Source of the DNA: Coleofasciculaceae cyanobacterium CTOTU46609
GTDB lineage: Bacteria; Cyanobacteriota; Cyanobacteriia; Cyanobacteriales; Coleofasciculaceae
Length of the DNA: 30,828 nt
Assembly: GCA_031970015.1 (NCBI GenBank)
Contig: DALYJE010000026.1
Coordinates: 1-30,828 of the forward strand
Direction: 5' to 3'
The notes below the pieces were generated by a model. It saw only the letters and a program-made list of their open reading frames with translations. It did not search any database and was not told the origin of the DNA. Below, piece by piece: positions 3,501 to 30,828 of this stretch (its first letter is position 1; each line of letters begins with the position of its first letter). The translations under genes were made by a program, and so were the position numbers.

Positions 3501-4099
3501 GCTTGGCTCAAAACGGTACTGGTAACGAACTCGCCAATACCGTGACAGGCAATGAAGGTAATAACAGCCTCAATGGAGGAGGTGGCAATGATATCCTGTT
3601 TGGCAATGCTGGTGCCGATACCCTTACAGGAGCAGCCGGTGCAGATACCCTTGATGGTAGTGAAGGGGATGATAACCTCAACGGTGGTGTAGGAACGGAT
3701 TTGCTCCTAGGTGGTGCAGGCAATGATGTTCTCACTGGTGGTGATAGCAATGACATTTTAGTAGGTGGTATCGGCAATGACACCATTACAGGCGGTGCAG
3801 GCAGCGATACGATTCGCTATGCCAATAGTGATGGCCAAGACAGAATTAACGCATTCACCGCAGGCGTAGGTGGAGACATCCTCTCATTCAGCGGCATGAC
3901 TACTGCGCTTGATGTCCGCCTAGTCACCACAGCCACGGCGGGTACTAATACACAAATCCGAGTCAGCGATGGCATTAGTGGAAACTCAGGTTTTGGACAA
4001 GGGGAATTGTTAATGACTCTGATTGGTGTCGCCTTGACCCAAGCGGATATCACCACCAACGTTGACGCAACTAACAGACCTACTTTCCTGTTCTCCTAA
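590..4099 (+). CDS. Secreted pentapeptide-repeat plus RTX (haemolysin-type Ca-binding) repeat protein. Probable T1SS substrate.
   Basis: The N-terminal ~420 aa show A(D/N)LxxA(N/D)L pentapeptide periodicity. Many GGxGNDxL nonapeptide repeats are interleaved with HCBP-related modules of the form TDTVxSSxxYTLxxNxENLxL. The C-terminal GG(D)xIxxFxxG..D segment is T1SS-target-like. ATG start. Confidence 0.85.
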   Translation: MPQDFSLQNLVGLDFSGQNLTAANFFKSRMDDCLLINTTLVRTNFEEATLLNVNAVGANFNQANLFKASIKSTNLENATFVDAILREADLSGEQAEFESDTIEIVNTVLRNADLTRADLSLAKLKAANLTNAKLIDANLQGADLESVLFFNTNATGADFRLANFTDVDLGGTVIFDLANFNGIAITDTDPVIDPDTGLPILTTISFRGANLAGTSLEDVVFSNADFRPFDGWHNGVHVIQATDLTGMSLPDSNVSGSQLNGAILNNVFGEDLNLNGVDFSPYTASNGQVFRTQLNSVNLNSANFVGANLTQVIAEDAYLNGADLSNASSINADLDSAFIQKSNLTGTNFTGASLVGADLKEAVGNNLTNFTNANLSSASLEVGSFIGANFTNANLTNAILTKGNFTNATFVGANLTGAIAVDVIGLTLGDGNNNTINGTAGKDNIFGFGGSDNLNGNGGDDYLDGAAGNDTLNGGAGNDTIQGGTGNDTYIVNSSGDVIIELASQGTDTVQSSATTYTLSSHVERLTLTGTAIEGVGNDLANTITGNGSNNNLKGEAGNDTLSGGAGNDTLDGGTGNDLMSGGTGNDTYIIDSAGDAIAESLNEGTDTVRSSLASYTLGANVENLTLIGSAQNGTGNGVANVITGNESSNILNGFGGNDTLSGGAGDDTLDGGAGNDGMRGGLGNDTYIIDSAGDSITENANEGTDIVQSSLASYTLGSNLENLSLIGTAQNGTGNELDNTITGNELDNILDGGSGNDTLIGGLGNDTYIIDSAGDSITENANEGTDIVQSSLASYTLGSNLENLSLIGTAQNGTGNELDNTITGNELDNILDGGSGNDTLIGGLGNDTYIIDSAGDSITENANEGTDIVQSSLASYTLGSNLENLSLIGTAQNGTGNELDNTITGNELDNILEGGSGNDTLIGGLGNDTYIIDSTGDAIAENLNEGTDTILSSLESYTLGNNLENLVLVGLAQNGTGNELANTVTGNEGNNSLNGGGGNDILFGNAGADTLTGAAGADTLDGSEGDDNLNGGVGTDLLLGGAGNDVLTGGDSNDILVGGIGNDTITGGAGSDTIRYANSDGQDRINAFTAGVGGDILSFSGMTTALDVRLVTTATAGTNTQIRVSDGISGNSGFGQGELLMTLIGVALTQADITTNVDATNRPTFLFS
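2641..3369 (+). repeat. three near-identical 243-bp (81-aa) tandem modules inside the RTX gene, with more diverged copies from about 2040 to 3600
   Basis: Direct nucleotide comparison: copies at 2641, 2884 and 3127 are identical except for a few bases. The period is 243 bp and in frame. Confidence 0.9.
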
Positions 4100-4314: not shown

Positions 4315-5565
4315 ATGGCTATCAAAAATGGAACAGAACTGCCCGATACTCTTACAGGTACTACGAACGCCGACACGCTGCGTGGTTTTGGCGGCGACGA
4401 CCTACTAAATGGTTTAGGCGGTAATGACCTGCTCCGAGGCGGGAACGATAAAGATACCCTGCTTGGTGGAGGTGGCGCTGACAGGCTCTTTGGGGATGCA
4501 GGCGAGGATTCTTTGTATGGTGAAGCTGGCAATGACACCCTCTATGGCGGGACGAGCCTTAGCGATGTTCTTGATGGCAAAGACCTCCTTGATGGTGGTA
4601 GTGGCAATGACTGGGTATATAGCGGTTTCGAGGATACCGCGATGGGTGGTGCGGGAAATGACACTCTGGTTGGTAGTTTATATAATGATCTGCTATACGG
4701 CGATGATGCAGAGGGTTTCGTTCTGGGTGGTGCTGACTCGCTCGTAGGTGGAGATGGCAATGATACCCTTTACGGCGAAGCTAACGACACCATTAGCGGT
4801 GGCAACGATACCATCTTAGGCGGAGGTGGCGATGACGTTCTCTATGGCTATGCCGGTAATGACTCCCTCGTGGGCGGTGATGGTGTTGATACCCTCGTCG
4901 GTGGCGACGGCAACGACGTTTTAGATGGCGGCGCTGGCTCCAGTACACTGTTGGGCGGCGCTGGCTTAGAAACCATCACGGGTGGTGTTGAAAGTGACTA
5001 CATTGATGGTGGCGAAGGCGTTGACAGCCTTTTAGGTGGCGGTGGTGATGACACCATTTATGGGGATTTCGGAGTAGCAGATTCGTTGTCTGGCAATGAT
5101 GTCCTCAATGGTCAAGCCGGAAATGACATCCTTGATGGCGGCTTTGGTGCCGATCGCATCATCGGAGGCGCTGGCTTTGACATTCTCTATGGTGGTGAAG
5201 ATGGAGAAACCCAAACCGCCCGCGATACGCTGACTGGCGGCGCTGATGCTGACCTATTCCAGTTGGCAAGCACAGACTTTTTGCTAGAGCCTGTTGAGCC
5301 TAGTTTCCCACCAGAACCCGTACCACCAGAACCTGTTGGCGACCTGATTACTGATTTCCAGGATGGGATCGACTTGATCGAGTATGAGTTTGTCAATGAC
5401 TTTAGTGAATTGATTATCATTGGCAACGGTACTTCTAGCGTTACTATCAGCGTTGTGAATCAAGGTATCCCTGGAGAAATACCTGACTACACAGAATTGG
5501 TCGCTCAGTTGAATGGGGCAGGTGGCTCCATCATCACGCTCACAGAAGCAGACTTCCTGATTTAA
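4315..5565 (+). CDS. RTX/haemolysin-type calcium-binding repeat protein
   Basis: GGxG(N/D)DxL repeats run through most of its length. A proline-rich linker PEPVPPEPV precedes a C-terminal domain. GAGGA lies 9 nt before the ATG. Confidence 0.85.
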   Translation: MAIKNGTELPDTLTGTTNADTLRGFGGDDLLNGLGGNDLLRGGNDKDTLLGGGGADRLFGDAGEDSLYGEAGNDTLYGGTSLSDVLDGKDLLDGGSGNDWVYSGFEDTAMGGAGNDTLVGSLYNDLLYGDDAEGFVLGGADSLVGGDGNDTLYGEANDTISGGNDTILGGGGDDVLYGYAGNDSLVGGDGVDTLVGGDGNDVLDGGAGSSTLLGGAGLETITGGVESDYIDGGEGVDSLLGGGGDDTIYGDFGVADSLSGNDVLNGQAGNDILDGGFGADRIIGGAGFDILYGGEDGETQTARDTLTGGADADLFQLASTDFLLEPVEPSFPPEPVPPEPVGDLITDFQDGIDLIEYEFVNDFSELIIIGNGTSSVTISVVNQGIPGEIPDYTELVAQLNGAGGSIITLTEADFLI

Positions 5566-5700: not shown

Positions 5701-7956
5701 ATGCGTATTCTATTTTTACATCCTAATTTTCCTGCCCAATTCCGTCATCTGGCTGCGGCGCTCGCCAACGATAAACGTCACCAAGTAGTATTCGGCACTA
5801 CCCGTCGCGAAGGTCATCTACCCGGTGTCACCAAGATGATTTATAGCCCAAAACGAGAAGCTCGACCGGAAACTCACCACTATGTCCGTCCCCTAGAAAA
5901 CGCCGTAATTCAAGGTCAGGCTGTCTATCGCATGGCAGAGCAACTGAAGGCACGCGGATTTGTTCCCGATGTCGTCTATGGACATTCGGGTTGGGGGCCA
6001 ACTTTATTAATGAAAGATATATTTCCAAAAGCTAAATTACTGTGCTATTTTGAATGGTTTTATCATGCTCATGGCTCTGATGCTGACTTTGACCCAACTG
6101 AACAGCTAAGTGCTGACGATGAAGCCCGGATTCGGCTGAAAAATGCGCCGATTTTGATGGATTTATATAGTTGCGATCGCGGCCTTTCTCCCACCCACTG
6201 GCAGCGCCAGCAATTTCCAGTAGAAAATCAAAGTAAAATTACGGTACTTCATGATGGCATTGATACCAACTTCTTTAGCCCCAAGCCAGGAGCTAAGTTG
6301 GTTCTGCGCCAAATCAATCTAGACCTATCTCATGTGGCAGAACTCGTTACCTATGTAGGTCGAGGCATGGAACCTTACCGGGGTTTTCCGCAATTTATTG
6401 AAGCAATCTACTTACTTCAACAGCGCCGACCCCAATGTCATGTTGTCATTGTTGGGGAAGATCGAGTTGCTTATGGGAAGTCTCTGCCAGATGGCAAAAC
6501 CTATAAGCAGTTGATGTTAGAAAAATTCCCCTTAGACTTGTCTAGAGTTCACTTTACAGGACATCTCCCTTACGAAGAATATCTACAAGTTCTGCAAGCT
6601 TCTTCTGTCCATATTTATTTGACTCGCCCCTTTGTTTTATCCTGGTCAATGTTGGAAGCTTTATCTACAGGTTGTTTGATTGTGGGTTCCAACACAGCCC
6701 CAGTAACTGAGGTCATCCAAGATGGGGTAAACGGTCTCATCGCAGAGTTCTTTTCACCAGCAGAAATTGCCGATCGAATTGAGGAAGCGTTGAATCATCC
6801 CGATCGCATGAATCAAATCCGCACGCAAGCAAGGCAAATTATTCAGGAACGTTACGATCTGTCGCTGTTACTGCCCCAGCACTTACAGTGGATTCAGCAG
6901 GATATCGGCGATAGTCAGATTCTGCTATGGCAGGGAACTCAGTCAAAGTCAGCCACTATCATCCCAGCCAACGAACCGCATGGGAAAGATCAAGAGTCGG
7001 AACGCTCATCCACGCCAGAGCTAGTTCCGATCGCTCAGGGGAACGAGTCAAATGGCATTCCTAAAGCCAACAAGGCTTCAGTTAAACCAAAGCAAGTTGC
7101 GATCGCTCAGGGTTTTGGCTCAAAAGGAAAACCTAAAAGCACGAAGCATTCACCTACACCAAACCTAGCCGCTACTACCAATAGTTTCAGCTCGAAGGGA
7201 AAATCCAAAGATCAGGAACAGCCATCTGCAACAGATTCAGGTATCTTACAAATTTGCGATCGCACCGTGACGGGGACTGAACTGGTTGTTCTGCTGAATC
7301 AATACCAACTGCTGCCAAAGCTTCAGCAAGAGATCGTAATTGAGGATGCGATCGCGCCCTTTAGCTGCACCCTGGAAGAGAAAGTCCAGTGCTGCCAGGA
7401 CTTCTACGATCGGCATCAGTTGACATCCGACACGGTACGTCAAACCTGGTTGCAGCAGCAGAGCATGACAGAAGCCCAATTAATCAACCTGGCAACCCGG
7501 CAACTGAGAATTGAAAAGTTTAAAGAAGCCACCTGGGGTAGCGAATTGGAAACCTACTTTCTCAAGCGCAAGTGCCAACTCGACCAATTCGTCTACTCCC
7601 TAATTCGTCTTCGGGATGCTGAAACTGCCCAGGAAATTTACTGCCGCTTGCAAGAAGGGGAACAGCCTTTTGCTGAATTGGCACAGCAATATTCCCAGGG
7701 TGTAGAAGCTAAGACGGGTGGCTTAATTGGTCCAGTGGGATTGAGTAACGCTCATCCTCAACTCGCCCAACTCATCAGAACCAGCCAACCAGGGCAGCTA
7801 TTGCCTCCTATTGCCATCGCAGATTTGTGGGTGATTGTGCGGTTAGAAAAGTTTTTGCCTGCTCAACTAGATGAACTAATGCGGCAGCAGTTACTCAACG
7901 AACTATTCGCTAACTGGCTCAAGGAACAACTTCAAAAACCTGCAATATCATTATAA
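5701..7956 (+). CDS. GT4-family (group 1) glycosyltransferase fused through a disordered S/K/P linker to a SurA-N-like plus parvulin-like (PpiC) domain
   Basis: The N-terminal half has the GT-B retaining-GT pattern, including an EX7E-like segment SWSMLEALSTGCLIVGS...TEV. The C-terminus, FAELAQQYSQ...TGGLIGPV...LWVIVRLEK, matches parvulin topology but lacks the catalytic His pair. Confidence 0.75.
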   Translation: MRILFLHPNFPAQFRHLAAALANDKRHQVVFGTTRREGHLPGVTKMIYSPKREARPETHHYVRPLENAVIQGQAVYRMAEQLKARGFVPDVVYGHSGWGPTLLMKDIFPKAKLLCYFEWFYHAHGSDADFDPTEQLSADDEARIRLKNAPILMDLYSCDRGLSPTHWQRQQFPVENQSKITVLHDGIDTNFFSPKPGAKLVLRQINLDLSHVAELVTYVGRGMEPYRGFPQFIEAIYLLQQRRPQCHVVIVGEDRVAYGKSLPDGKTYKQLMLEKFPLDLSRVHFTGHLPYEEYLQVLQASSVHIYLTRPFVLSWSMLEALSTGCLIVGSNTAPVTEVIQDGVNGLIAEFFSPAEIADRIEEALNHPDRMNQIRTQARQIIQERYDLSLLLPQHLQWIQQDIGDSQILLWQGTQSKSATIIPANEPHGKDQESERSSTPELVPIAQGNESNGIPKANKASVKPKQVAIAQGFGSKGKPKSTKHSPTPNLAATTNSFSSKGKSKDQEQPSATDSGILQICDRTVTGTELVVLLNQYQLLPKLQQEIVIEDAIAPFSCTLEEKVQCCQDFYDRHQLTSDTVRQTWLQQQSMTEAQLINLATRQLRIEKFKEATWGSELETYFLKRKCQLDQFVYSLIRLRDAETAQEIYCRLQEGEQPFAELAQQYSQGVEAKTGGLIGPVGLSNAHPQLAQLIRTSQPGQLLPPIAIADLWVIVRLEKFLPAQLDELMRQQLLNELFANWLKEQLQKPAISL

Positions 7957-19001: not shown

Positions 19002-19874
19002 CTACAAATACTTCCTTAACAACAGCCGTAACTTTTCTTTCGTCGCCTCTGAGACCTGAGCCAGTGGTGTCAAAATGGCGTATTTTAAGGCCGAGTGCGC
19101 CTCCGAAACAGGGGGATTTTCACTCAAGCGCCGCACGGTTTCTTGAATTACTTTCTGAGCATTGGTAGCATTACGTTGCAGATTAGCAATTACCATTTCT
19201 ACCGTCACGCTGTCGTGGTCGGGATGCCAGCAGTCGTAATCTGTTACCAGTGCTAAGGTTGCATAGGCTATCTCCGCTTCCCGCGCCAGCTTTGCCTCTG
19301 GCAAATTGGTCATCCCAATCACTGTTGCGCCCCAGCTGCGGTAGAGATTAGACTCAGCTTTTGTGGAAAATGCTGGCCCTTCCATACAGACATAAGTGCC
19401 GCTGCGATGCAGGGTTACATCTGGTAATTCCAGACTGGCAACTGCATCTGCTAAAACCCCTGCCAGTTGATGGCACACCGGATCGGCAAAGGCAATATGA
19501 GCGACAATTCCTTCACCAAAGAAGGTAGAAACCCGATTTTTGGTACGGTCAATAAACTGATCCGGTACTACCATATCTAGAGGTTTAGCCTCTTCCTTCA
19601 AGGAACCCACGGCTGAGGCCGAAATCAGATACTCCACACCTAACTGCTTCATGGCATGGATATTGGCTCGAAATGGTAACTCTGAGGGTAACAGAGTGTG
19701 GTTGCGACCGTGACGGGCGAGAAACGCCACGGGCGTTCCTGCCAGCGTTCCCACAATCAAGGCATCTGACGGCGTACCAAAGGGGGTATCAACCCGCACC
19801 TCTTCCAAATCCTTGAGGTCTGCCATTTTGTACAGTCCGCTACCGCCAATAATGCCAATTTTTGCCTGAGCCAT
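19002..19874 (-). CDS. mtnP: S-methyl-5'-thioadenosine phosphorylase
   Basis: [16 protein letters not shown]-terminus and the PNP/MTAP family pattern throughout. Confidence 0.85.
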
Positions 19875-20308: not shown

Positions 20309-21871
20309 ATGCCAAAGGAAAGTCCAAACGTTAGCTTAGATGCCCTGATACCTAGAGAAGCTTTTGAAGTTCTAGGACAACAAAATCAAAACATAGGAAG
20401 AAATGTTCCTATGATATCAATTCGAGATTTAGAACAAAATTCTTTCTTCTATCCATCTTTAAGGAAGCCAGATTTCCAGCGTGAAACTAATGAGTGGGAT
20501 GCTGAGAAAATATGTGAGTTTATAGAAAGCTTTTTGGATGGAGATTTAATCCCAGCAGTTATTCTTTGGAGAAGTTCTGGTAGTGACTACTTTGTCATTG
20601 ATGGCTCACATAGACTAAGTTCTTTAATTGCTTGGATAAATGATGATTATGGTGATGGTAAAATTTCCAAAGAATTTTATGATGGAGACATCGCAGAAGA
20701 GCAGAAGAGTGCTGCTCAGATGGTAAGAAAATTGATTAATGAAAGGATAGGTTCTTACAAGCATTATCAATCTTTAACACAGCATCGAGGAGAAGTAGAC
20801 CCAAAAATTCTTGATAGAGCAAGAAACTTAGGCGCTTTAGGTATACAGCTTCAGTGGGTTGAAGGTGATGTACGCAAAGCAGAAGATTCTTTCTTCAAAA
20901 TCAACCAAAAAGCAGCGCCAATAGGTGAAACTGAGATACGTTTGTTACAAGCTCGAAATACACCTAATGGTGTTGCTACTCGTGCCATCATGAGAAGTGG
21001 TAACGGACATAAGTATTGGTCAGACTTTTCTCATGAGAAGCAAGAAAATATTGAGAAATTAGCTCAAGAAATACATCAACTCATTTTTGAACCTAAGCTG
21101 AAAAATCCTATTAAGACTTTAGACGTACCAATAGTAGGAAATTTGTCATCTTCAGAAAAACTTGAATTAATATTAGAGTTTGTCAATATAGTTAATAATA
21201 TAGAAGAAGATAATCAATTGGGAAACGATTCAACGGGAGATAAGACAGTACAACTGTTAAGAAATTGCAAAAAAGTAGCTCAAAGGATAAATAGCAAAGA
21301 CCCTTCATCTCTTGGTCTTCATCCAATAATATATTTCTATACGAGTGCTGGAAAGCCTAAAATTGGCTCATTTTATGGTGTTGTTGCCTTGATGTTAGAT
21401 TTAGAAAAAACTAAATCTTTTTCTAAGTTTATACAAATTAGAAAAGATTTTGAGTGGGTGATTTGGCAAGATGATATGGTTCCACAGATTGTCAGTAAGA
21501 GCAGTGCAGTAAAGGCGAGAGGAAAGGTTAAAGATTTTTATCGACAAATCATTGACAAATTATCTGAAGGAGTAGACAAGAAAAATGTCATGAAGGAGAT
21601 AGTTGCTGAAAAAACATTTGGTTCTTTAAAAAGAAAAACAAAAGGGAATACCAGTGAAACCGCAAGTAAAGAATTTTCACGAGAGACAAAATCAGCAGCA
21701 TTTATCAGAGATACTTTACCTGGTTCTCCACGATGTAGAATTTGTGAGGGATATCTCCCCAGTAGCTTTTGCTCTATAGACCATAAAATAAGAAAAGCAG
21801 ATGGTGGCTTAGGTACTTTAGAGAATGCCCAGTTGACTCACCCATACTGTAATACAACATTCAAAAATTGA
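20309..21871 (+). CDS. DUF262 (ParB/GmrS-like) N-terminal domain plus C-terminal HNH nuclease protein. GmrSD/SspE-like candidate defence nuclease.
   Basis: N-terminal FQRETNEW...IPAVILW...FVIDGSHRLSSL follows the DUF262 FQR/DGQQR pattern. C-terminal CRICEGY...IDHKIRKADGG...ENAQLTHPYCN follows the HNH pattern. AAAGGAG lies 7 nt before the ATG. The gene is AT-rich and I find no HIP1 site inside it. Confidence 0.75.
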   Translation: MPKESPNVSLDALIPREAFEVLGQQNQNIGRNVPMISIRDLEQNSFFYPSLRKPDFQRETNEWDAEKICEFIESFLDGDLIPAVILWRSSGSDYFVIDGSHRLSSLIAWINDDYGDGKISKEFYDGDIAEEQKSAAQMVRKLINERIGSYKHYQSLTQHRGEVDPKILDRARNLGALGIQLQWVEGDVRKAEDSFFKINQKAAPIGETEIRLLQARNTPNGVATRAIMRSGNGHKYWSDFSHEKQENIEKLAQEIHQLIFEPKLKNPIKTLDVPIVGNLSSSEKLELILEFVNIVNNIEEDNQLGNDSTGDKTVQLLRNCKKVAQRINSKDPSSLGLHPIIYFYTSAGKPKIGSFYGVVALMLDLEKTKSFSKFIQIRKDFEWVIWQDDMVPQIVSKSSAVKARGKVKDFYRQIIDKLSEGVDKKNVMKEIVAEKTFGSLKRKTKGNTSETASKEFSRETKSAAFIRDTLPGSPRCRICEGYLPSSFCSIDHKIRKADGGLGTLENAQLTHPYCNTTFKN

Positions 21872-21994: not shown

Positions 21995-22023
21995 AAAAAG
22001 CCTCCCATTCAGGAGGCTTTATT
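21995..22023. terminator. bidirectional intrinsic terminator AAAGCCTCC-CATTCA-GGAGGCTTT between convergent genes
   Basis: 9-bp GC-containing stem. ATTCTC follows on the plus strand and TTTTTGTTT follows on the minus strand. It sits between the plus-strand stop at 21871 and the minus-strand stop at 22050. Confidence 0.7.
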
Positions 22024-22049: not shown

Positions 22050-25000
22050 TCAATAACCAAACATCGCTAAACCCCCTACGCCTAACACCCCAGCGAAAGC
22101 TGCAACTGCGACGGAAGTAATCGCCGTACCAAACAACCACCAAGCTGCGGTTGCAGCGGCTTTTCGGGTTTCTTTCAGTTGCTTCTTAGCCTTATGTTTG
22201 AGTTCTTTAACTCGTTTTTGAGCTTCCTCTTGCAGGCGTTCGGCGCGGCTGAGTATGCTATCGCGCATCCCTTCAATTTGGTTGACGATCCGATTAGCAT
22301 CTGCCTGGGAGATGTCCTCGCGGGAACTCAAGATCGCTACCAAGGTATCCCGATCGAATTGACTCAGCCGATCGCGCAGCGCTTCCAATCCCGCTTCTGG
22401 ATCGTCAAACAGCTTGCGCAAGTCTCCCTTAATCCCTTCATAGTTTAGTTCGGGGCGATCGAGGGAGTTGAGGTAATTCCGGATTCTGCCAAAAATGCTG
22501 TCCATCGCAGATTGGACTTGGTGTTGGACAGCTTGCACTTGTTCGACCAACTGATGGCGAACGGAGTCGATATTATCCGCAATTCGGTTCGCGTCCTCCT
22601 CGGAAATATCCTCCCGTTGCGATAGCAGTGCCACAAGGGTATCCCGATCGAACTGCGCAAGGCGATCGCTCACACTCTTCCACCCTGCTTGGGGGTCTTT
22701 AAATAACAGTTGCAAGTCTCGCTCGATCCCTTCGGGATTGAGTTCTTCTTTGTTGGTATTCCGCAAGTACTCTTCAAATTCGGCTCGGTAATCCCGTACC
22801 GTATCTTTAGCACGACTGGCCAAGCGTCGCGGTGCTTTGATAATGCTGCGAATCGCATCCTGTACGCGATCGATAATCCGATTCACTTGCTCCTCGCTCA
22901 AGTTTTCCCGCTGACTAAGAAGTTTGACCAAGGTGTCCCGATCCACTTCCGAGAGCCGTTCGCGTAGTGCTAATGCTCCTGCTTTCGGGTCATCTAGGAG
23001 TTTTGCCAAATCCTGCTTGATGCCTTCGGGGTCGAGTTCATCCAGATTGGTGTTCCGCAAATACTCGGCAATTTGATGCGTCAGGCGATCGTACTGCTCC
23101 TTAGCCTTACCTGTTAATTCTTGGGGTGCATTCAGGATGCGATCTCGCACTTCTAAGAAGCGATCAATAACCTGATTAATCTGTTCCTCACTCAAATCGC
23201 CGCGCTGACTTAACAATTGCACCAGCGTATCGCGGTCAAATTCCGAAAGCCTTTGCTGTAAAGCTTTTAGTCCTGCTTGGGAGTCATCTAGGATAGTTTG
23301 CAAACCTCGCTTGATGCCTTCAGGATTTAGTTCTTCTTTGTCGATCTCGCCCAGGTAGGATTCTATCGTTTGCCTGAACTCTTCTGCTTTAGATTTTGCT
23401 TGGTCTTGCAGATTTTGAGCCTGTGACAAAATGCGATCGCGAGTGCTTTCCAGTCGCTCGACAATTTGATTCGCTTCCTCTTCACTCAGGTCTTGACGTG
23501 CTGCTTTAAGCATCTGCACTAAGGTGTCGCGATCGAACTGCGAGAAGCGATCGCGCAGTGCATCAATACCAGCCTCTGGGTCTTCCAGAAGTGCTTGGAA
23601 ATCGCGCTCAATACCTTCTGGATTCAGTTCTTCTTTACCCGTCCCGGCTAGATAGTTTTCAACCCTACTACGGAGGTCTTGCGATCGCTGTTGACCTTCA
23701 GACTCTTGCACCAAGTTATATACTTCCGTCCGCAGTTCTTCTAGCTGATCTGCAATCTCAGAAACGCGCTCGGAGTCGAAGTCACCCCGCTGATTCAGCA
23801 GTTGTACGAAGTAGTCTCGATTCAGTTGCTCTAGCTGCTGGCGAACGATGCCTGAAGCTGCTTCCACGTCATAGATAACGTCTCTAAATTCCTGTTTAAT
23901 CGTCTCTCGATTCAGGTGCCAAGGTTTGGAATTGAGCAGGTAGTTTTCAACATCTGCCTTAATTGTGTTGAAGGGTTGATGCAGTATCTGATCAGCAACC
24001 TGAGTGGAAAGGGTTTTAGCTTGCTCGGTTGCTTTATCTTTGAACTGTTGCAACTGGCTAGAAATTTTTTCCACATCTAGATCGGAGAGATCTGTCCGCG
24101 TCAGTACTCTACCCACTAGAGCGCTAATACCCAGTTGCAAGGCTTGTTCCCCGAAGCCACCATTGCCATTACCGCCATCGGATTTGCTCGAGCCAACTCC
24201 AACTAGTTGTCCGAGCCTATCGCTAAGCCGATCGGAGGTTAGCTCTTCTGGACTGGCAGACTCAAGGAAATTGAGCAGTTTTGCCTGCGGATTAATCTGT
24301 TGTTGATGACCCAATACTTGCTGCCAAGCAGCTTCTAGTTGGTCTGCAATCCGATTAACGTCTTGTTTGGATAGATCTGTACGACTGCTAATTAAATCAA
24401 CGAACGTCTGACGGTTCACGTTTTGCAGAATGTCACTATCAGCAATAGACCTCAACTCCGAACCAATGAGCAAATTTTCAAAATCCTTGCGAATTTGTTT
24501 GAGGTCTAACTTGGGTATTTGCAGATCGGCGACGTAGTCTTGTAACGTCTCCCGGACGCGAGTCGGGTTAACCGCACCCCTCAATTCGCGGCGAACAGCA
24601 GCTACAGATGCATCGACCGTATTGACAATCTGAGCGTTTGCCGCTCTGCCACCTAGAGCTGTAGCTACTACAGCCATGACTCCTTGCCAGCTTGAACCAG
24701 CTGTACTAGCAACGGAACCTACAATAGAACCAATCCCCCTCGAACTAACCCACAGTAGCAGCAAGAAGTATGCTGACCAGATCACAACGCCTGTAATGCC
24801 TCCCAGAATCAGGCTGTTAATTAAGGTCAGTTTCACGGCCAGAAAACACGCCATGAATAAGGCAATGTTGACGGTAACTAAAGCCCATGCCCCTACCTTG
24901 GATTCAACTACGCTAATCTTACCACCCCAGGTTTCGGCCTCCTCAGCCTCTAAGGGATTCTCCCCGGCTGAAATGCCTGCGGCGAGCGTGAAATTGGTTA

Positions 25001-25190
25001 ACAAAAATTGGAAAGCAAACGCCATGAGTACCCCAGCAATCAAGGCGATAAAAAATTGCGATCCCGAAAAGACCAGTGCCCCCTGTTCTGGAGTATTAAT
25101 GACTCCAGACGCGGTCGGATCTGATGGCATTTGGGCAAGCCAGAGTGGTGCGTTGCACAACCCTAGCAACATTCCCACACTTTGAAACAT
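22050..25190 (-). CDS. large membrane-anchored repeat protein. An N-terminal polytopic TM region is followed by about seven helical repeats of roughly 100 aa and a C-terminal TM helix.
   Basis: Hydrophobic stretches at the N-terminus (about four) and the C-terminus. The recurring unit is EELNPEGI..D...LL.DP.AG..ALR.RLS.FDRDTLV.LLSQR.DLSEE..N.I.DR. No family recognised. Confidence 0.7.
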   Translation of the reverse strand: MFQSVGMLLGLCNAPLWLAQMPSDPTASGVINTPEQGALVFSGSQFFIALIAGVLMAFAFQFLLTNFTLAAGISAGENPLEAEEAETWGGKISVVESKVGAWALVTVNIALFMACFLAVKLTLINSLILGGITGVVIWSAYFLLLLWVSSRGIGSIVGSVASTAGSSWQGVMAVVATALGGRAANAQIVNTVDASVAAVRRELRGAVNPTRVRETLQDYVADLQIPKLDLKQIRKDFENLLIGSELRSIADSDILQNVNRQTFVDLISSRTDLSKQDVNRIADQLEAAWQQVLGHQQQINPQAKLLNFLESASPEELTSDRLSDRLGQLVGVGSSKSDGGNGNGGFGEQALQLGISALVGRVLTRTDLSDLDVEKISSQLQQFKDKATEQAKTLSTQVADQILHQPFNTIKADVENYLLNSKPWHLNRETIKQEFRDVIYDVEAASGIVRQQLEQLNRDYFVQLLNQRGDFDSERVSEIADQLEELRTEVYNLVQESEGQQRSQDLRSRVENYLAGTGKEELNPEGIERDFQALLEDPEAGIDALRDRFSQFDRDTLVQMLKAARQDLSEEEANQIVERLESTRDRILSQAQNLQDQAKSKAEEFRQTIESYLGEIDKEELNPEGIKRGLQTILDDSQAGLKALQQRLSEFDRDTLVQLLSQRGDLSEEQINQVIDRFLEVRDRILNAPQELTGKAKEQYDRLTHQIAEYLRNTNLDELDPEGIKQDLAKLLDDPKAGALALRERLSEVDRDTLVKLLSQRENLSEEQVNRIIDRVQDAIRSIIKAPRRLASRAKDTVRDYRAEFEEYLRNTNKEELNPEGIERDLQLLFKDPQAGWKSVSDRLAQFDRDTLVALLSQREDISEEDANRIADNIDSVRHQLVEQVQAVQHQVQSAMDSIFGRIRNYLNSLDRPELNYEGIKGDLRKLFDDPEAGLEALRDRLSQFDRDTLVAILSSREDISQADANRIVNQIEGMRDSILSRAERLQEEAQKRVKELKHKAKKQLKETRKAAATAAWWLFGTAITSVAVAAFAGVLGVGGLAMFGY

Positions 25191-25513
25191 AGTTTTTTCC
25201 TCTTTAAAGCTTGAGCAGGCGCAAAGTTAGCGTTATCCTCACCTTTCCCTCTTCTTGTAACGCCACAACACGCCTAACTTAATGTTTATCGCTAAAAACT
25301 GAACCTAACTCCCTCTAAGGTTTGAAAAGTGCCAGGACTTTTTGATATTTTATCTAACGTTGTTAAAAAAGTCTCCTTTATACCTTTAGGTGTACCCATA
25401 TCTACTACTTTTGACGTAAAGCTTGCTATCCCAGCTTTCTTCTCTGGGAGGCTTCTAACTTGAAAGTCGGGAATCGGGAGTGGGAAATATTACTTTCATA
25501 TCCTGAGATGCGT

Positions 25514-28500
25514 TTACTCAGGGCTAGCCGTCAAGTCAATAATTTCTTCAAACTGGAAGTTATTAACTAAATCCTTAAGCGCTTCGATGAGGGAAGCGTA
25601 CTCTTGAGGAATTTGCGCAACCAAGCCTAAAACTAGCTCGTCGTTACATGCCATGGCGGCATTGTGTAGTTGTACGACCCACTGGGTTGGTAGTTGAGCA
25701 AAGTAACGTTTAATTTCAGCCGATGTCATCATCTCTGGAGTATTTTGGCTAGCGCTTTGGGTGTTGATGGTTTGCTCTTCCCAAACGTAGATGGCCCCTA
25801 GGTGTTGGCTCACTTTTTCTAGTAATACTTCCTCTCGAAATGGCTTGCCCACAAAATCATCACAGCCTGCTGACAAAATCATCTGTCGCTGATCCTCAAA
25901 CGTGCTGGCTGTCAGGGCAATAATTTTAGTTTTGGGGCGCGGTAATTGGTGATAGGTAATTGTTGCTAGGGAAGCTTGTCCTGTAACGTGAGAATTTTGA
26001 GTTGGGAATTCCTCATCCCTCACTCTTTCCTGCTCCCTCGCTTTAATATAACGGGTGGCTTCATACCCATCCATGACTGGCATTCGCATATCCATGAAGA
26101 TGAGGTGGGGTTGCCAAGTTGCCCACAACGCGATCGCTTCTCGTCCATTTTCTGCCTCTCGCACCAGAAAACCGATGGATGTGAATAGCGCGACTACTAC
26201 TAGACGGCTCTCAAAGCGATCGTCAACTACTAAGATGCGATAGTCAGGTTGGTTTGGTGCTAAACCAGTTACTTGACATTTGGTTGGCGTTGTCTCAACA
26301 TTAATGGCCTCAGTTAGCGCTACCTGGATATTAAAGGTAAAAATACTGCCCTTACCTAGGATACTGCTAATGCTGATATCTCCTCCCATGAGCTGAACGA
26401 ATTTGCGGCTAATTGGTAAGCCTAATCCAGTCCCTTGCTGAGATTTTCGGCCTGTTTCTGTTTGCCCGAAAGGTTCAAATAATAGGTCAATTTCAGTAGG
26501 AGCAATGCCGGAGCCTGTGTCTTCTATTTCAAATATAATGGTTGTTTGTTGTTGGTTGTTGGTTGTTGGTTGTTGGTTGTTTTTGGGAAGTTTTGCTCTT
26601 AAAAAGACATGTCCTTTGTTGGTAAATTTAATGGCATTTGAGAGGAGGTTAATTAAACAAGATCTTAGTTTGCCTTCATCGGTTTTTATGTAGTCGGGCA
26701 GGTTGGGAGCAATTTCAAAAATTAGCTTTAAACCCTTGGATTCCGCTCTTAAGCGAAACATTTGTTTCACAGAGTCTAACAAGTGAATTAAGCTAAAGCA
26801 ATTTTCCGACAAGGCAATTCTGCCTGCCTCGATTTTGGACATTTCTAGGACATCGTTGATTAAATCTAACAGATGCTCGCCAGCGCGATTAATAATTCCC
26901 AAGTATTGCTGATGCTTAGCAGACAGGGATGAATCGCGATTCATGATTTGAGTAAAGCCGAGGATGGCGTTGAGTGGAGTACGTAATTCGTGGCTCATAT
27001 TTGCTAAAAATTCGCTTTTAGCGCGGTTGGCGGCATCGGCGGCATAGACAGCTTGTTGCAGTGCTGTTGACTGTCTTTGGGTTTCTTCTAGCAGTTCTGC
27101 CTGTTGTAAGGCAACTCCTAGCTGATTGCCAATTTGCACAACGATATTAATTTCTGCTGTTTTCCATTGGCGGGCACCAGAATTTTGATAGGTTGCTAGT
27201 AATCCCCAAAGTTGACTGCGGCAGAAAATCGGTACGGTAACGTAGGCTCTCGCTTGAAATTGCTCTAACAGCTGAACGTAACAGCTGGGAAACTCCGCCT
27301 GATAAATGTCTGGAACGCACAGGTAATTTACACCTTGGCGGTAAGCACCGCCTTTGGTGTCTTGCAGGTAAGTGTCTCGTACTAGGTCATCAATGCTAGT
27401 TAAATTTTTTACATGACAAAGAGAGTCTTCTAGAGTATTTTCTGTAAAGGTAGCGTCATAGTGTTGCTGCCTCATGAGAGAAATCCACTTACCCCCTACC
27501 GACTCGGCAACGAACTCTCCACTCCAGTCGGGATTGAACCGATAGACGACAACGCGATCGCAATTAATCACTTGGCGCAATTCTTGGGTGGTAGCGGTGA
27601 ATATCGCTTCGATATCCAAGGTTTGGCGCATTCTTTGGATGACTTTAGCGATCGCTCTTTCCCGCTGAGCCATCTGTCGCAGGGTTTCTTCTGCCTGTTT
27701 GCGTTCGGTGATGTCCCGTCCTTCCGCAACTAGGAACATCACGTTATGACTGGAGTCCAAGACGGGTTTGACGGAAAAGTCAATGGTGGTAAAGGTGTAT
27801 CCTGCACCTCGAATATCAACTTCATAACGAACAATGCTACCTGCCGCAGCACGAGTGATCGCTTCTTGCAATTGTTGCTGTTTTGGCGACAGACGAGGCG
27901 CGTTCTTTCTGGGATACTTGCTTGTCTTTTTACGTTTTCCAGGTTCAGTCCACCATCGGGTTTCCCAAAATGGACTCCCAACTGCCTCGGATAGTTCACT
28001 CCCAGCAAAGTCAAGAGCCGTTTGATTGGCATCTAGCAGGGTGCCATCGGGTTGTAATACTGCTGTAAATTGGAAACTGGAATTAAAAATAGCGCGAAAT
28101 CGCTGTTCGCTCTCGCTGAGCGCAGCTTCGGCTTGTTTCTTGTCGCTAATATCAAAAATTACGCCATCAAGCCATAGTAGTACCCCGGTGGCATCAAAAA
28201 TGCCTCTGCCTTTTTCGTAAACCCAAGCAATGCTGCCATCGGCTCGCATCATTCGATAATCGATCAGGAAAGGTTGTCTATTGGCTACACTTTCCCAGAC
28301 TATTCTCTGAACCTGATGTCGATCGTCGGGATGGATGATACTGGCAAAGGTGCGCACTTGATTGTTAATAAAATCGTTGGGTGGATAACCGGAAATTTCT
28401 AAAATGGCCGAGCTGATGAACGCCATCGTCCAGTCAGCATCGCAAAGGCAGCGGTAAACAGCGCCAGGGATATTGGAGACTAATGTTCTAAACCGTTCTT

Positions 28501-29914
28501 CTCGTTCTCGCAGCGTTGCCTCGGCTTGCTTGCGATCGCTGATATCGGTGTTAGAGCCTACCATGCGCACGGGGACTCCTCGTTCATCCCATACAGCCTG
28601 TCCTCTGCCCAAAATCCACTTATAACTGCCATCTTTGCACCGCAAGCGATGCTCAACGGCGTAATGGGGAATTTGGCGATCGAGGTAAGCTTGTTTGGTG
28701 GTCATCACTCGGTCGATATCCTCGGGATGGATGCGATCGAGCCATTCATTATTGTTATTTTCTATTTCGTGGTCTTCATAACCCAACATTTCTTTCCAAC
28801 GGGTGGATCGAAAGATTTCTCCAGTAATTAGGTTCAAGTCCCATATTCCGTCATTATTGCCCTTGAGGACTAACTGCCAGCGTTCTTCAAGTTGTCGAAT
28901 GGCAGCCTCTGCCTGTTTGCGTTCTCGTGCTTCAATGGCTAACGAAACTAAATCTGCCAGGGAGCGGGCGAAGTTCTGGTCTTCTGGCGTCCAGTGACGA
29001 GCAGCACCGACCTGTTCTAAGCATATAACTCCTGCCGTTTGCCCCTTGATCTGGATGGGCGTATCCAGCATGGAGGCAATGCCTAAGGGGGTCAAATAAG
29101 ACTCGGAAAATTCTCGGGTTCTCGGATCGGTGTGAGCGTCATCTGCTGCGATCAGCTGGTCTTGCTGTAAGGCTTGAAAATAGGTTGGATAGTTTGTTGC
29201 TAGCAGTTCAATGCCTGCACTATGCTGGTTACCACTCTTCTCAAATAAGTCAAGGCACTTAATTTTACTACCTGTGTCATCATAGATCCATATGCTAGAG
29301 CGTTCGACATCGATATTATAAGCACTAGCTTCTGTAATCTCTTGTAAAGCAGCTGGAAAATTTCCCTGATTTAAAGCTGGACTTTTGGCTAGTTGTGCCA
29401 AACTTAGGTTGTGATTGCGTAGCTTATGGGCACTCTCTGCCAAGGCTTCTTGGGCGCGTTGGCGTTCTGAGATTTCCCGTTGCAGTTGTAGGGTTTGTTC
29501 CCGCAGCGATAACCGCTGGCGCACGATGGTTAACTGATTTTCTACACGGGCTATGACCTCTTCAATTTGAATTGGTTTGCTAATGTAATCGACACCACCG
29601 ACGCTAAAGGCTTTTACCTTATCCAACCCCTCATCGAGCGCACTTAAGAAGATCACCGGAATCTCGCAGGTAGTTTCGCTGGCTTTGAGTTGTTGGCAAA
29701 CTTCATAGCCATTCAGATCGGGCATCATGATATCGAGCAAAATTAGATCTGGCGGATCGCAACGGGCTACAGTCAAAGCTAGTTTGCCGTTAATGACTCG
29801 ACGAACTTCATAGCCGTACTGTGTAAGCAGTGAGGATAGCAGGTGCAAGTTTTCCGGGACATCATCAACGATTAAGATGTCTCCTTTCGGTTGGGAAGTG
29901 CGATCGCTAACCAT
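25514..29914 (-). CDS. multidomain hybrid sensor histidine kinase (REC, coiled coil, GAF, PAS x3-4, GAF, HisKA, HATPase_c, REC, conserved C-terminal module)
   Basis: N-terminal receiver ILIVDDVPENL...LLDIMMPDLNGY. The H-box is MSHELRTPLNAILGF. G-boxes GTGLGL are present. The C-terminal receiver is ILVVDD...FMDMRMPVMDGY. ATG start. It overlaps the upstream gene's stop by 8 nt. Confidence 0.9.
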   Translation of the reverse strand: MVSDRTSQPKGDILIVDDVPENLHLLSSLLTQYGYEVRRVINGKLALTVARCDPPDLILLDIMMPDLNGYEVCQQLKASETTCEIPVIFLSALDEGLDKVKAFSVGGVDYISKPIQIEEVIARVENQLTIVRQRLSLREQTLQLQREISERQRAQEALAESAHKLRNHNLSLAQLAKSPALNQGNFPAALQEITEASAYNIDVERSSIWIYDDTGSKIKCLDLFEKSGNQHSAGIELLATNYPTYFQALQQDQLIAADDAHTDPRTREFSESYLTPLGIASMLDTPIQIKGQTAGVICLEQVGAARHWTPEDQNFARSLADLVSLAIEARERKQAEAAIRQLEERWQLVLKGNNDGIWDLNLITGEIFRSTRWKEMLGYEDHEIENNNNEWLDRIHPEDIDRVMTTKQAYLDRQIPHYAVEHRLRCKDGSYKWILGRGQAVWDERGVPVRMVGSNTDISDRKQAEATLREREERFRTLVSNIPGAVYRCLCDADWTMAFISSAILEISGYPPNDFINNQVRTFASIIHPDDRHQVQRIVWESVANRQPFLIDYRMMRADGSIAWVYEKGRGIFDATGVLLWLDGVIFDISDKKQAEAALSESEQRFRAIFNSSFQFTAVLQPDGTLLDANQTALDFAGSELSEAVGSPFWETRWWTEPGKRKKTSKYPRKNAPRLSPKQQQLQEAITRAAAGSIVRYEVDIRGAGYTFTTIDFSVKPVLDSSHNVMFLVAEGRDITERKQAEETLRQMAQRERAIAKVIQRMRQTLDIEAIFTATTQELRQVINCDRVVVYRFNPDWSGEFVAESVGGKWISLMRQQHYDATFTENTLEDSLCHVKNLTSIDDLVRDTYLQDTKGGAYRQGVNYLCVPDIYQAEFPSCYVQLLEQFQARAYVTVPIFCRSQLWGLLATYQNSGARQWKTAEINIVVQIGNQLGVALQQAELLEETQRQSTALQQAVYAADAANRAKSEFLANMSHELRTPLNAILGFTQIMNRDSSLSAKHQQYLGIINRAGEHLLDLINDVLEMSKIEAGRIALSENCFSLIHLLDSVKQMFRLRAESKGLKLIFEIAPNLPDYIKTDEGKLRSCLINLLSNAIKFTNKGHVFLRAKLPKNNQQPTTNNQQQTTIIFEIEDTGSGIAPTEIDLLFEPFGQTETGRKSQQGTGLGLPISRKFVQLMGGDISISSILGKGSIFTFNIQVALTEAINVETTPTKCQVTGLAPNQPDYRILVVDDRFESRLVVVALFTSIGFLVREAENGREAIALWATWQPHLIFMDMRMPVMDGYEATRYIKAREQERVRDEEFPTQNSHVTGQASLATITYHQLPRPKTKIIALTASTFEDQRQMILSAGCDDFVGKPFREEVLLEKVSQHLGAIYVWEEQTINTQSASQNTPEMMTSAEIKRYFAQLPTQWVVQLHNAAMACNDELVLGLVAQIPQEYASLIEALKDLVNNFQFEEIIDLTASPE
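26551..26578. repeat. heptanucleotide microsatellite (GTTGGTT)x4 with degenerate extension, inside the kinase HATPase_c coding region
   Basis: Read directly. On the coding strand it is AACCAAC repeats, giving the NNQQPTTNNQQQTT insertion. Confidence 0.85.
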
Positions 29915-30828
29915 TACTTATTAAATCAATTATTTCATCAAGACGGAAATCGTTAACTTTCTGGCCTATCCCTTCAGCTAGAGCCGCATATTCTGAAGGA
30001 ATTTGCTCAATCAGCTTCCAAATGTCTTTTTCTCTAGCCGAAACTGCGGCAGCATAAAGCTTAGCAACCCATTCAGCAGGCATCTGGGCTAAAGCTTCCT
30101 TTAAACAGGGTACGCTAGGTGATGCTAAATTTGCTTTGAATTCGCCATTGGCCGTTTGGGGTTCATCATGTAAGGGAGCTGGTTCTTCGTAAATATAGTG
30201 CACCCCTAAATATTGAGACATTTTCTCCAAAATTTCTTCCTCTCGGAACGGCTTGCGTACAAAATCGTTACATCCAGCAGACAAGGCCAGGTGGTAGTCT
30301 TGTTCAAAAGCGTTAGCTGTCAAGGCGATAATGGTGGTTTGAGGCTGGGGAGTCGTGGGGGACAACTCATGATGTCTAATCTGCTTAGTCGCCTGGTAGC
30401 CATCCATCACGGGCATTCGTATATCCATCCAAATTAGGTGTGGTTGCCAACTTGACCATAAGGCTATAGCATCTTGACCATTTTCCGCTTCTCGCACTGT
30501 AAAACCTGCCGTTGTGAGGAGATGAACTAATAACAGGCGGCTTTCCCAACAATCCTCAACCACCAAGATGCGATAGTTGGGTTGGCGAGGTGCTAGGGCA
30601 ATTGCTTGACGCTGGGGTTGTGTGGCCTGAATCTCAGCCGCTTTTCCCAGGCTAACCTGAATATCGAATTGAAAAATCGCTCCTTGGCCTAATTTACACC
30701 TTACCGATATATCCCCTCCCATCAGTTGCACGAATTTGCGGCTAATGGCTAAGCCTAATCCCGTGCCTTGCTGAGATTTGCGCCCCGTTTCTGTTTGTCC
30801 AAAGGGTTCAAACAGGAGATCGATTTCT
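29907..30828 (-). CDS. hybrid histidine kinase paralogue, 3' portion (end of HATPase_c, REC, conserved C-terminal module). The 5' end lies beyond the window.
   Basis: The listed start at 30731 is an internal GTG. The frame stays open to the window edge. Nucleotides 30732..30828 are homologous to 26400..26480 of the neighbouring kinase (G2 box GTGLGL region). Confidence 0.8.
   Translation of the reverse strand, partial: EIDLLFEPFGQTETGRKSQQGTGLGLAISRKFVQLMGGDISVRCKLGQGAIFQFDIQVSLGKAAEIQATQPQRQAIALAPRQPNYRILVVEDCWESRLLLVHLLTTAGFTVREAENGQDAIALWSSWQPHLIWMDIRMPVMDGYQATKQIRHHELSPTTPQPQTTIIALTANAFEQDYHLALSAGCNDFVRKPFREEEILEKMSQYLGVHYIYEEPAPLHDEPQTANGEFKANLASPSVPCLKEALAQMPAEWVAKLYAAAVSAREKDIWKLIEQIPSEYAALAEGIGQKVNDFRLDEIIDLISNG

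Follow-up and report, generated by a model that had tools for sequence, protein, structure and literature searches.

EzrA of the Firmicutes forms an arch and is known as a membrane-anchored helical-repeat scaffold. In the cyanobacterium Synechocystis, AncM (locus slr2070; PMC12661324) is an anchor of thylakoid convergence membranes and is described as a single-pass protein (PMC13592050); it is the sole named cyanobacterial "membrane anchor" that our literature search found. Here we describe a gene of Coleofasciculaceae cyanobacterium CTOTU46609 whose product, a protein of 1046 amino acids (aa), is predicted to carry membrane anchors at both ends and a long array of helical repeats in between. 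The gene lies in a stretch of 30,828 nucleotides (contig DALYJE010000026.1, positions 1 to 30,828), which will be called the window.

Comparison with described systems places the 1046-aa protein near EzrA and spectrin-type scaffolds, as it would share with them membrane anchoring, all-helical repeats of ~100 aa, location at the cytoplasmic face and long helices that run from repeat to repeat in the models. In principle these scaffolds are its closest analogues, but membership is unsupported by either sequence or fold. AncM is similar in being a membrane protein of cyanobacteria that is encoded by a stand-alone gene and proposed to keep membranes in position. Identity with AncM was rejected on architecture: AncM is described as single-pass, while the protein studied here has 3+1 predicted transmembrane (TM) helices and an 810-aa repeat array. 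By kind, the 1046-aa protein may be viewed as a membrane-tethered helical-repeat scaffold anchored at its two ends, whose repeat unit and 3-TM module are both new. By sequence, it belongs to an orphan family homologous to nothing described.

Architecture of the protein

The open reading frame (ORF) occupies minus-strand positions 22050..25190; it is complete (1046 codons plus stop) and has an ATG start. Its product is identical to the GenBank hypothetical protein DC064_00375 of Cyanobacteria bacterium UBA9273. Kyte-Doolittle analysis located hydrophobic helices at approximately aa 44-66, 100-122, 126-148 and 1015-1040. From the N-terminus onwards, the protein is made of a signal-like sequence, three TM helices, a helical repeat array of ~810 aa and a C-terminal TM helix.

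Three motifs recur along the array with a period of 98-99 aa. An ELNPEGI-type motif, E[LD][ND][PY]EGI, is found at aa 521, 620, 718, 816 and 914; it is followed 16 residues later by D[PS]xAG (aa 537, 636, 734, 832 and 930) and 32 residues later by DRDTLV (aa 553, 652, 750, 848 and 946). This periodicity is far above chance expectation. When one repeat unit was used to search the whole protein, five copies were detected with 47-50% identity (E 1e-25 to 2e-30), together with a sixth copy at aa 414-500 (34% identity, E 2e-16), a seventh at aa 191-303 (22% identity, E 4e-7) and a partial copy around aa 347-406. A DNA-level scan of the gene found no tandem repeats, which argues that the duplication is ancient. 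An initial annotation of this DNA, made from the sequence alone, had described about seven repeats of ~100 aa with recurring motifs, flanked by membrane anchors. With five clear copies, one at 34% identity and one or two degenerate copies, the count is fair; the anchors and the motifs are borne out by the hydrophobicity analysis and by the periodicity of the array.

The repeat region is acidic (pI 4.8, net charge -42) and free of cysteine, and it combines a negative mean hydrophobicity with moderate hydrophobic moments. These values describe a soluble, acidic, cytoplasmic helical domain: anionic membrane surfaces would repel the array rather than bear it lying on them.

The distribution of lysine and arginine was examined in 29 cyanobacterial homologues. 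Mean K+R was 0.1 in the segment after the signal-like N-terminus, 3.7 in loop 1, 0 in the turn between TM2 and TM3 (loop 2), 1.1 in the segment past TM3, 8.2 in the 25 residues ahead of the last helix and 0.3 in the C-terminal tail. From these values, and from the signal peptides of the short-form homologues described below, we infer an N-out protein with three TM helices, a repeat array in the cytoplasm and the extreme C-terminus out. The stretch KKQLKETRK that precedes the last helix is a positive-inside signal. The region between aa 150 and 190 is probably an interfacial helix rather than a fourth TM helix, since it is weakly hydrophobic and carries K/R/H in short forms. Mean-field direct coupling analysis (DCA) of 468 unique sequences (effective number 182) yielded an antiparallel TM1-TM2 hairpin, with T68-W102 (z = 9.5), A52-L121, L64-T106 and S44-A118 as contacts; TM1-TM3 contacts were recovered too. 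The hairpin is consistent with the topology proposed.

AlphaFold, a check suggested in the initial annotation, was run on the full-length protein with 29 homologues (mean predicted local distance difference test score, pLDDT, 50) and on a fragment of two repeats, for which 36 orthologous and paralogous slices were aligned in register (mean pLDDT 62). Both models are all-helical, with zero strands. In the full-length model pLDDT is below 45 in the TM domain and 65-89 at aa 410-690, and the fragment model is no improvement on the matching region. Each unit is modeled in both cases as a helix of ~45 residues with three short ones after it, which measure 12, 8-13 and 9-11 residues. The small bundle thus formed would be built, with moderate confidence, around the conserved motifs YL...ELNPEGI...DPxAG...FDRDTLV...DLSEE. 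A Foldseek search gave zero matches at E <= 0.001, the top one being spectrin repeats 8-9 with a probability of 0.15.

Distribution of the family and history of its repeats

An indexed search retrieved more than 2100 homologues of the 1046-aa protein. The best 120 are 62-82% identical over their full length, and nearly all have 1020-1075 aa. An exhaustive search of 50%-identity representatives gave 725 clusters; for 327 of these, E was <= 1e-30. Relatives are encoded in at least 432 GTDB species genomes, and the best 80 were taken for comparison of loci: they belong to Coleofasciculaceae, Microcoleus/Tychonema, Kamptonema, Nostocales, Chroococcidiopsis/Gloeocapsopsis/Aliterella and others, and the ortholog has 1022-1073 aa in all 80. 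More members were found in Stanieria PCC 7437, Myxosarcina, Cyanothece PCC 7425, Leptolyngbya, Nostoc punctiforme PCC 73102, N. commune and N. flagelliforme, every one of them annotated as "hypothetical" or misnamed. Across cyanobacterial orders identity is 55-82%, and the length of ~1040 aa is fixed within about 5%. Many carriers are soil-crust or terrestrial organisms (Microcoleus, Nostoc commune/flagelliforme, Chroococcidiopsis).

Among 524 sequences, 251 fall into the long-form bin of 1020-1060 aa, and 128 belong to a short form of ~540-600 aa (~570). The short form is present in metagenome-assembled genomes labelled as Planctomycetota/Phycisphaerae, Latescibacterota, Zixibacteria, Manganitrophaceae (Nitrospirota), Armatimonadota and others, and also in a few early-branching cyanobacteria. 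Short proteins have textbook signal peptides, two clear repeats plus degenerate copies, and the same TM1 (whose "LLTN" motif is retained in non-cyanobacterial members too), TM2, TM3 and "AAWW" C-terminal helix as the long form.

When BLAST comparisons were made by domain across phyla, the membrane module was found to be 27-39% identical over ~150 aa and the last helix 45-50% identical. The long form ends its array with R7, which is orthologous to the final short-form repeat (40-48% identity), and R3-R6 each match the short-form penultimate repeat best. On account of these pairings, the cyanobacterial long form is an ancestral short protein enlarged by tandem amplification of its penultimate repeat. 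A cyanobacterial homologue of 1237 aa (P0080) has two extra core repeats; such variants are rare, and repeat number is still changeable.

Identity of the same two-repeat stretch is 62-74% between cyanobacterial orders, compared with 40-52% to paralogous neighbor repeats, and many residues are invariant at a single repeat position, as in the APRRLASRA linker between R5 and R6. Each repeat copy has been conserved separately since the amplification. Altogether, conservation, fixed length, separately conserved repeats and the split between ~570 and ~1040 aa indicate that the protein has a specific and important structural role on the cytoplasmic side of a membrane.

The initial annotation had recognized no domain family, and the searches agree with it. 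No curated family scored above its cutoff in a Pfam scan, and neither an NCBIfam scan nor phmmer against PDB sequences gave any match. A profile made of the 36 two-repeat slices found only weak apolipoprotein-like or designed helical matches in the PDB (best E = 0.006), a weak ApoE match included. The isolated membrane domains of the 1046-aa protein and of three distant homologues matched no family at E up to 10, and the Foldseek result points in the same direction. A literature search found no mention of Sta7437_3614, K9XZM6, B2J458, ACC82170, WP_012410141, ANSO36C_25400 or related identifiers, and a keyword search found nothing matching the protein.

The names carried by individual copies were also examined. 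Most RefSeq copies are called "MFS transporter", a name with no supporting domain: no MFS profile (e.g., PF07690 MFS_1 or PF00083 Sugar_tr) was found in the whole protein or in the membrane domain (E up to 10), and the protein has four hydrophobic helices separated by 810 aa of soluble helical repeats, not ~12 helices in two 6-helix halves. The JGI label "nucleoid DNA-binding protein" refers to HU. The Bac_DNA_binding profile (PF00216) reaches 30.2 bits as a sum of repeated partial matches to positions 2-42 of 90, with not one stretch passing alone; the label is an artefact of repeated weak matches. The repeat segment DRDTLVxLLSQRxDLSEEQxNxIID does resemble the first two HU helices, but the 1046-aa protein is devoid of beta-ribbon DNA-binding arms, and neither model contains strands.

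Apolipoprotein A1/A4/E (PF01442) was the top Pfam match, below threshold with 35.8 bits (E 9e-9) against a cutoff of 90. The likeness lies in a charged, helical, repetitive sequence; the 1046-aa protein differs in its predicted integral anchors, its strongly negative charge and the turn motifs NPEGI and DPxAG that define the bundle. JGI calls some members ElaB/YqjD/DUF883. The E. coli proteins ElaB/YqjD/YgaM (DUF883) resemble it in having a helical cytoplasmic part that leads, through basic residues, into a C-terminal TM tail anchor; the 1046-aa protein, however, is ten times longer, has an extra conserved 3-TM N-terminal module and a repeat family of its own, and gives no DUF883 profile match at Pfam E <= 0.01. 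Three more candidates were rejected: an MscS-type mechanosensitive channel, which would suit the mechanosensory role suggested in the initial annotation (no MS_channel domain in Pfam/NCBIfam scans or in the membrane-domain search); SMC, as in "Chromosome segregation ATPase" of N. flagelliforme CCNUN1 (no SMC, AAA or ABC match, and the ends are TM helices); and DUF4126 (PF13548), an older RefSeq name of one N. flagelliforme copy, which is absent in Pfam scans including that of the membrane domain at E up to 10. JGI labels differ from copy to copy (HU, ElaB, YfkK, GntR, MlaB, VapI), as is typical of spurious low-complexity helical matches. Thousands of sequenced copies are unnamed or misnamed, and profile libraries cover neither the membrane module nor the repeat; two new domain families and a correction of the annotation are justified.

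Gene neighborhood

The gene lies downstream of two co-directional hybrid histidine kinases, to which the initial annotation had proposed a functional tie. Both kinases are real: one is complete, with 1466 aa, and the other is a truncated paralogue. In the ORF list the latter was represented by a 274-aa ORF with a GTG start, apparently a response regulator; the frame is actually open to base 30827. The fragment starts inside the HATPase G2 box and continues with a receiver and a C-terminal helical domain. Its sequence is almost the same as that of the corresponding portion of the 1466-aa kinase, whose start it overlaps by 8 bp.

Conserved linkage, which the initial annotation had put forward as the test of such a tie, was examined by searching all window proteins against the 10-kb flanks of the 80 related cyanobacterial loci. 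An orthologous kinase beside the gene was found in 0/80. Kinase matches of any sort, present in 25 loci, were domain-level (<=24% query coverage), several kb off and mostly on the opposite strand. Three non-cyanobacterial loci had no neighbors common to each other or to cyanobacteria, and kinase linkage was 0/3. When the flanking ORFs of the 80 loci were clustered, no neighbor conserved across lineages was detected, and only lineage-specific blocks were seen. That the gene adjoins two sensor kinases is a local coincidence. Filamentous cyanobacteria have histidine kinases in extremely large numbers, so that chance adjacency is expected. The gene is a stand-alone unit with its own ribosome-binding site and terminator (Table 1). 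In the gap that separates it from the kinase, no terminator was recognized on the strand of the gene, and a consensus promoter scan of that strand, which is uninformative for cyanobacterial promoters, was negative.

Table 1. Features of the gene, its product and the upstream region (window coordinates)
Feature	Position	Strand	Basis
Strong intrinsic terminator: T-run preceded by a 10-bp stem with 5 GC pairs	21997..22020	-	30 nt past the stop codon
C-terminal TM helix (predicted), aa 1015-1046, invariant AAWW start	22053..22148	-	Hydrophobicity, conservation, BLAST
Basic stretch KKQLKETRK, aa 1001-1014, ahead of the last TM helix	22149..22190	-	Charge counts
Last repeat R7, aa 892-1000, YLNSLDRPELNYEGI	22191..22517	-	Self-search, BLAST
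Core repeats R3-R6, four x 98 aa, aa 500-891, YLRNTNKEELNPEGI ... DPxAG ... FDRDTLV ... DLSEE	22518..23693	-	Motifs, self-search, BLAST
Diverged repeat, aa 414-499, 34% identical to core unit	23694..23951	-	Self-search with one unit
Degenerate repeats, aa 191-413, and low-complexity Gly/Asn linker	23952..24620	-	Self-search with one unit
Gly/Ser/Ala-rich, weakly hydrophobic helix, aa 150-190	24621..24743	-	Hydrophobicity, short-form comparison
TM3 (predicted), aa 126-148; invariant I132, I137, W138, F142	24747..24815	-	Hydrophobicity, conservation
TM2 (predicted), aa 100-122; invariant G100, F112, A114, F116, L117, A118, K120	24825..24893	-	Hydrophobicity, conservation
TM1 (predicted), aa 44-66; invariant F60, Q61, L64, T65, N66	24993..25061	-	Hydrophobicity, conservation
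Signal-peptide-like N-terminus (predicted), aa 1-20, ending WLAQ	25131..25190	-	Sequence, conservation, short-form homologues
Shine-Dalgarno-like AAAGAGG	25199..25205	-	8 nt before ATG; read from sequence
Gap to upstream kinase, 323 bp	25191..25513	-	Sequence scan
Upstream hybrid histidine kinase, 1466 aa, RR-GAF-PAS-PAS-PAS-GAF-HisKA-HATPase-RR	25514..29914	-	Pfam
Second, paralogous hybrid kinase, 3' part, cut by the window edge	29907..30828	-	Pfam, translation to edge

The block found near the Microcoleus ortholog contains proS, a MASE1-PAS-GAF cyclase, the HCP carotenoid protein and an ADC-like gene. In Microcoleus/Tychonema (loci L011-L046), the helical carotenoid protein, a homologue of the OCP N-terminal domain, is co-directional ~1 kb downstream and is followed by the acetoacetate-decarboxylase-like gene. 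In Nostocales/Chroococcidiopsis (loci L044-L078), a conserved block located on the opposite strand, 0.6-4.5 kb upstream of the ortholog, encodes a YflT-domain protein (~423 aa), a BON-domain protein, a CAAD/CurT-family protein and a small acidic protein; the YflT/BON/CAAD block is missing from the present window. The sole window neighbor found near the ortholog elsewhere is a purine/uridine phosphorylase-family gene (19002-19874, minus strand), with 87-91% identity in L001, L045 and L060. Its distance and orientation vary, which suggests that synteny is loosely kept in the region and that the genes do not form an operon. The downstream neighbor (20309-21871, plus strand), convergent with the target gene, is DUF262/GmrSD_N plus HNH nuclease-like and is possibly a defence gene.

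Other genes of the window were also identified. The minus-strand gene at 10261-12897 encodes a protein of 878 aa that is a full-length homologue of the Major Vault Protein (MVP) of eukaryotes, with matches to Vault repeats (2.4e-67), MVP_shoulder (2e-54) and Vault_2/3/4; a SIMPL/DUF541 gene (13036-13836) follows it. Bacterial and cyanobacterial MVP homologues were already known (bioRxiv 10.1101/872010; PMC3762200). On the plus strand are found a 1169-aa protein with pentapeptide repeats and 13 RTX calcium-binding repeats (590-4099), a 416-aa RTX-repeat protein (4315-5565), a Ser/Thr protein kinase with six WG_beta repeats (16393-18081) and a 751-aa GT4-family glycosyltransferase (Glyco_trans_4_3 plus Glycos_transf_1; 5701-7956) fused to a C-terminal PpiC-type peptidyl-prolyl isomerase, which is an unusual combination.

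Possible roles at the membrane

We tentatively propose that the 1046-aa protein is a membrane-tethered cytoplasmic scaffold or arch, encoded by a stand-alone gene. The two anchors would hold the repeat array at the cytoplasmic membrane face as a tethered arch or rod, and the net charge of -42 would keep it away from the anionic membrane surface. Each repeat, with its ~45-residue helix and its bundle of three short helices, might offer a docking surface of its own, conserved by position in the array, and the array would act as a docking scaffold. Cyanobacteria would have enlarged the ancestral form by amplification of the penultimate repeat and then frozen its length and sequence. The upstream kinases would play no part. 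Fixed length and separate conservation of the repeats argue for a defined geometry plus defined binding surfaces. The scaffold or ruler-like class suggested in the initial annotation is, on the same two grounds, the most reasonable one; the tie to the kinases did not survive the linkage counts (0/80 and 0/3).

Several points weigh against the scaffold proposal. The topology is based on the positive-inside rule only, and the low to moderate confidence of the AlphaFold models (mean pLDDT 50 and 62) makes the arrangement of the repeats relative to each other and to the membrane tentative. As for the last helix, DCA pairs with z >= 3 amount to 1.4% with TM1 and 1.2% with TM2, with 1.0-1.7% for true TM1-TM2 and TM1-TM3 contacts, and the best registers (antiparallel to TM1, parallel to TM2 with an offset of ~919, and antiparallel to TM3) match the topology prediction. 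These figures give a hint that the last helix may pack on TM1/TM2 within one membrane; however, a negative control (TM1 versus the soluble segment 986-1013) was equally enriched (1.2%), and the signal of the last helix with TM1/TM2 is no stronger. Lastly, the invariant polar residues Q61, T65 and N66 in TM1, and K120, could mean a transport or channel role beyond anchoring.

Such residues, with K120 at the end of TM2, would fit a small oligomeric channel, transporter or mechanosensor whose 3+1 TM helices form a pore and whose repeats serve as a cytoplasmic gate or tension sensor, and the membrane module is also the part best shared across phyla (27-39% over ~150 aa). We consider this role improbable: transport and channel families, MFS and MscS among them, gave no match, even with the membrane domain searched at E up to 10; each chain has four TM helices only; and the repeats hold most of the protein and of its conservation. 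An unlikely alternative is that the protein protects membranes under stress or desiccation in the manner of apolipoprotein, LEA or ElaB proteins, its amphipathic helices coating and stabilizing their surface when cells dry out or enter stationary phase. The sub-threshold Apolipoprotein match (35.8 bits, E 9e-9), the weak ApoE match of the repeat profile, the ElaB/YqjD/DUF883 names given by JGI, the vicinity of YflT (general stress) and BON-domain genes in Nostocales/Chroococcidiopsis and the soil-crust or terrestrial life of many carriers can be read in that direction. Yet the Apolipoprotein score is far from the cutoff of 90; net charge, negative hydrophobicity and moderate moments are ill suited to anionic membranes; the unit is a compact, motif-rich bundle and not a uniform 11/22-mer amphipathic helix; and the stress-gene neighbors are lineage-specific and missing from the present window. 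That the protein serves the two hybrid histidine kinases upstream as an accessory or a scaffold is very improbable. The gene is co-directional and only 323 bp downstream, with no terminator recognized in the gap, but linkage is absent from 80/80 related loci and 3/3 non-cyanobacterial loci, which refutes the idea at the level of conserved linkage; in addition, both a Shine-Dalgarno sequence and a terminator belong to the gene itself, and proximity by chance is expected where kinases are so abundant.

It is also conceivable, if quite unlikely, that the N-terminal module and the tail anchor sit in opposing membranes (plasma membrane and thylakoid, or two thylakoids), so that the protein would be an inter-membrane tether or ruler with the repeats setting the gap. 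A cytoplasmic array with both termini predicted outward has the topology for spanning the cytoplasm between two membranes; all 80 cyanobacterial species compared keep the protein within 1022-1073 aa, while its length is about half in non-photosynthetic lineages; and a CAAD/CurT-family gene lies ~4 kb away in Nostocales and Chroococcidiopsis loci. A pure ruler should, however, tolerate drift, and every repeat is strongly conserved; the family is present in phyla without thylakoids; and the weak co-evolution hints, if meaningful, favor a last helix that shares one membrane with TM1/TM2. There is a small chance that the protein is a cytoplasm-spanning ruler in the strict sense, in which the 3-TM module and the tail anchor lie in facing membranes and a rigid, position-specific array fixes the distance between them. 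If so, the four- to five-fold repeat amplification and the frozen length would set a cyanobacteria-specific spacing, for instance a thylakoid-thylakoid or thylakoid-plasma-membrane gap that accommodates phycobilisomes, and the half-length form would do likewise in Planctomycetota and other phyla, where the gaps between intracytoplasmic membranes are narrower.

Returning to the membrane-tethered scaffold, the protein itself is unsurprising; the family to which it belongs is strongly constrained, widespread, misannotated and experimentally approachable, with orthologs in tractable strains such as Nostoc punctiforme PCC 73102 (B2J458) and Cyanothece PCC 7425 (B8HXF2). Because cyanobacterial membrane architecture is still without most of its organizing factors, this fixed-length, double-anchored protein is a reasonable candidate for one of them.

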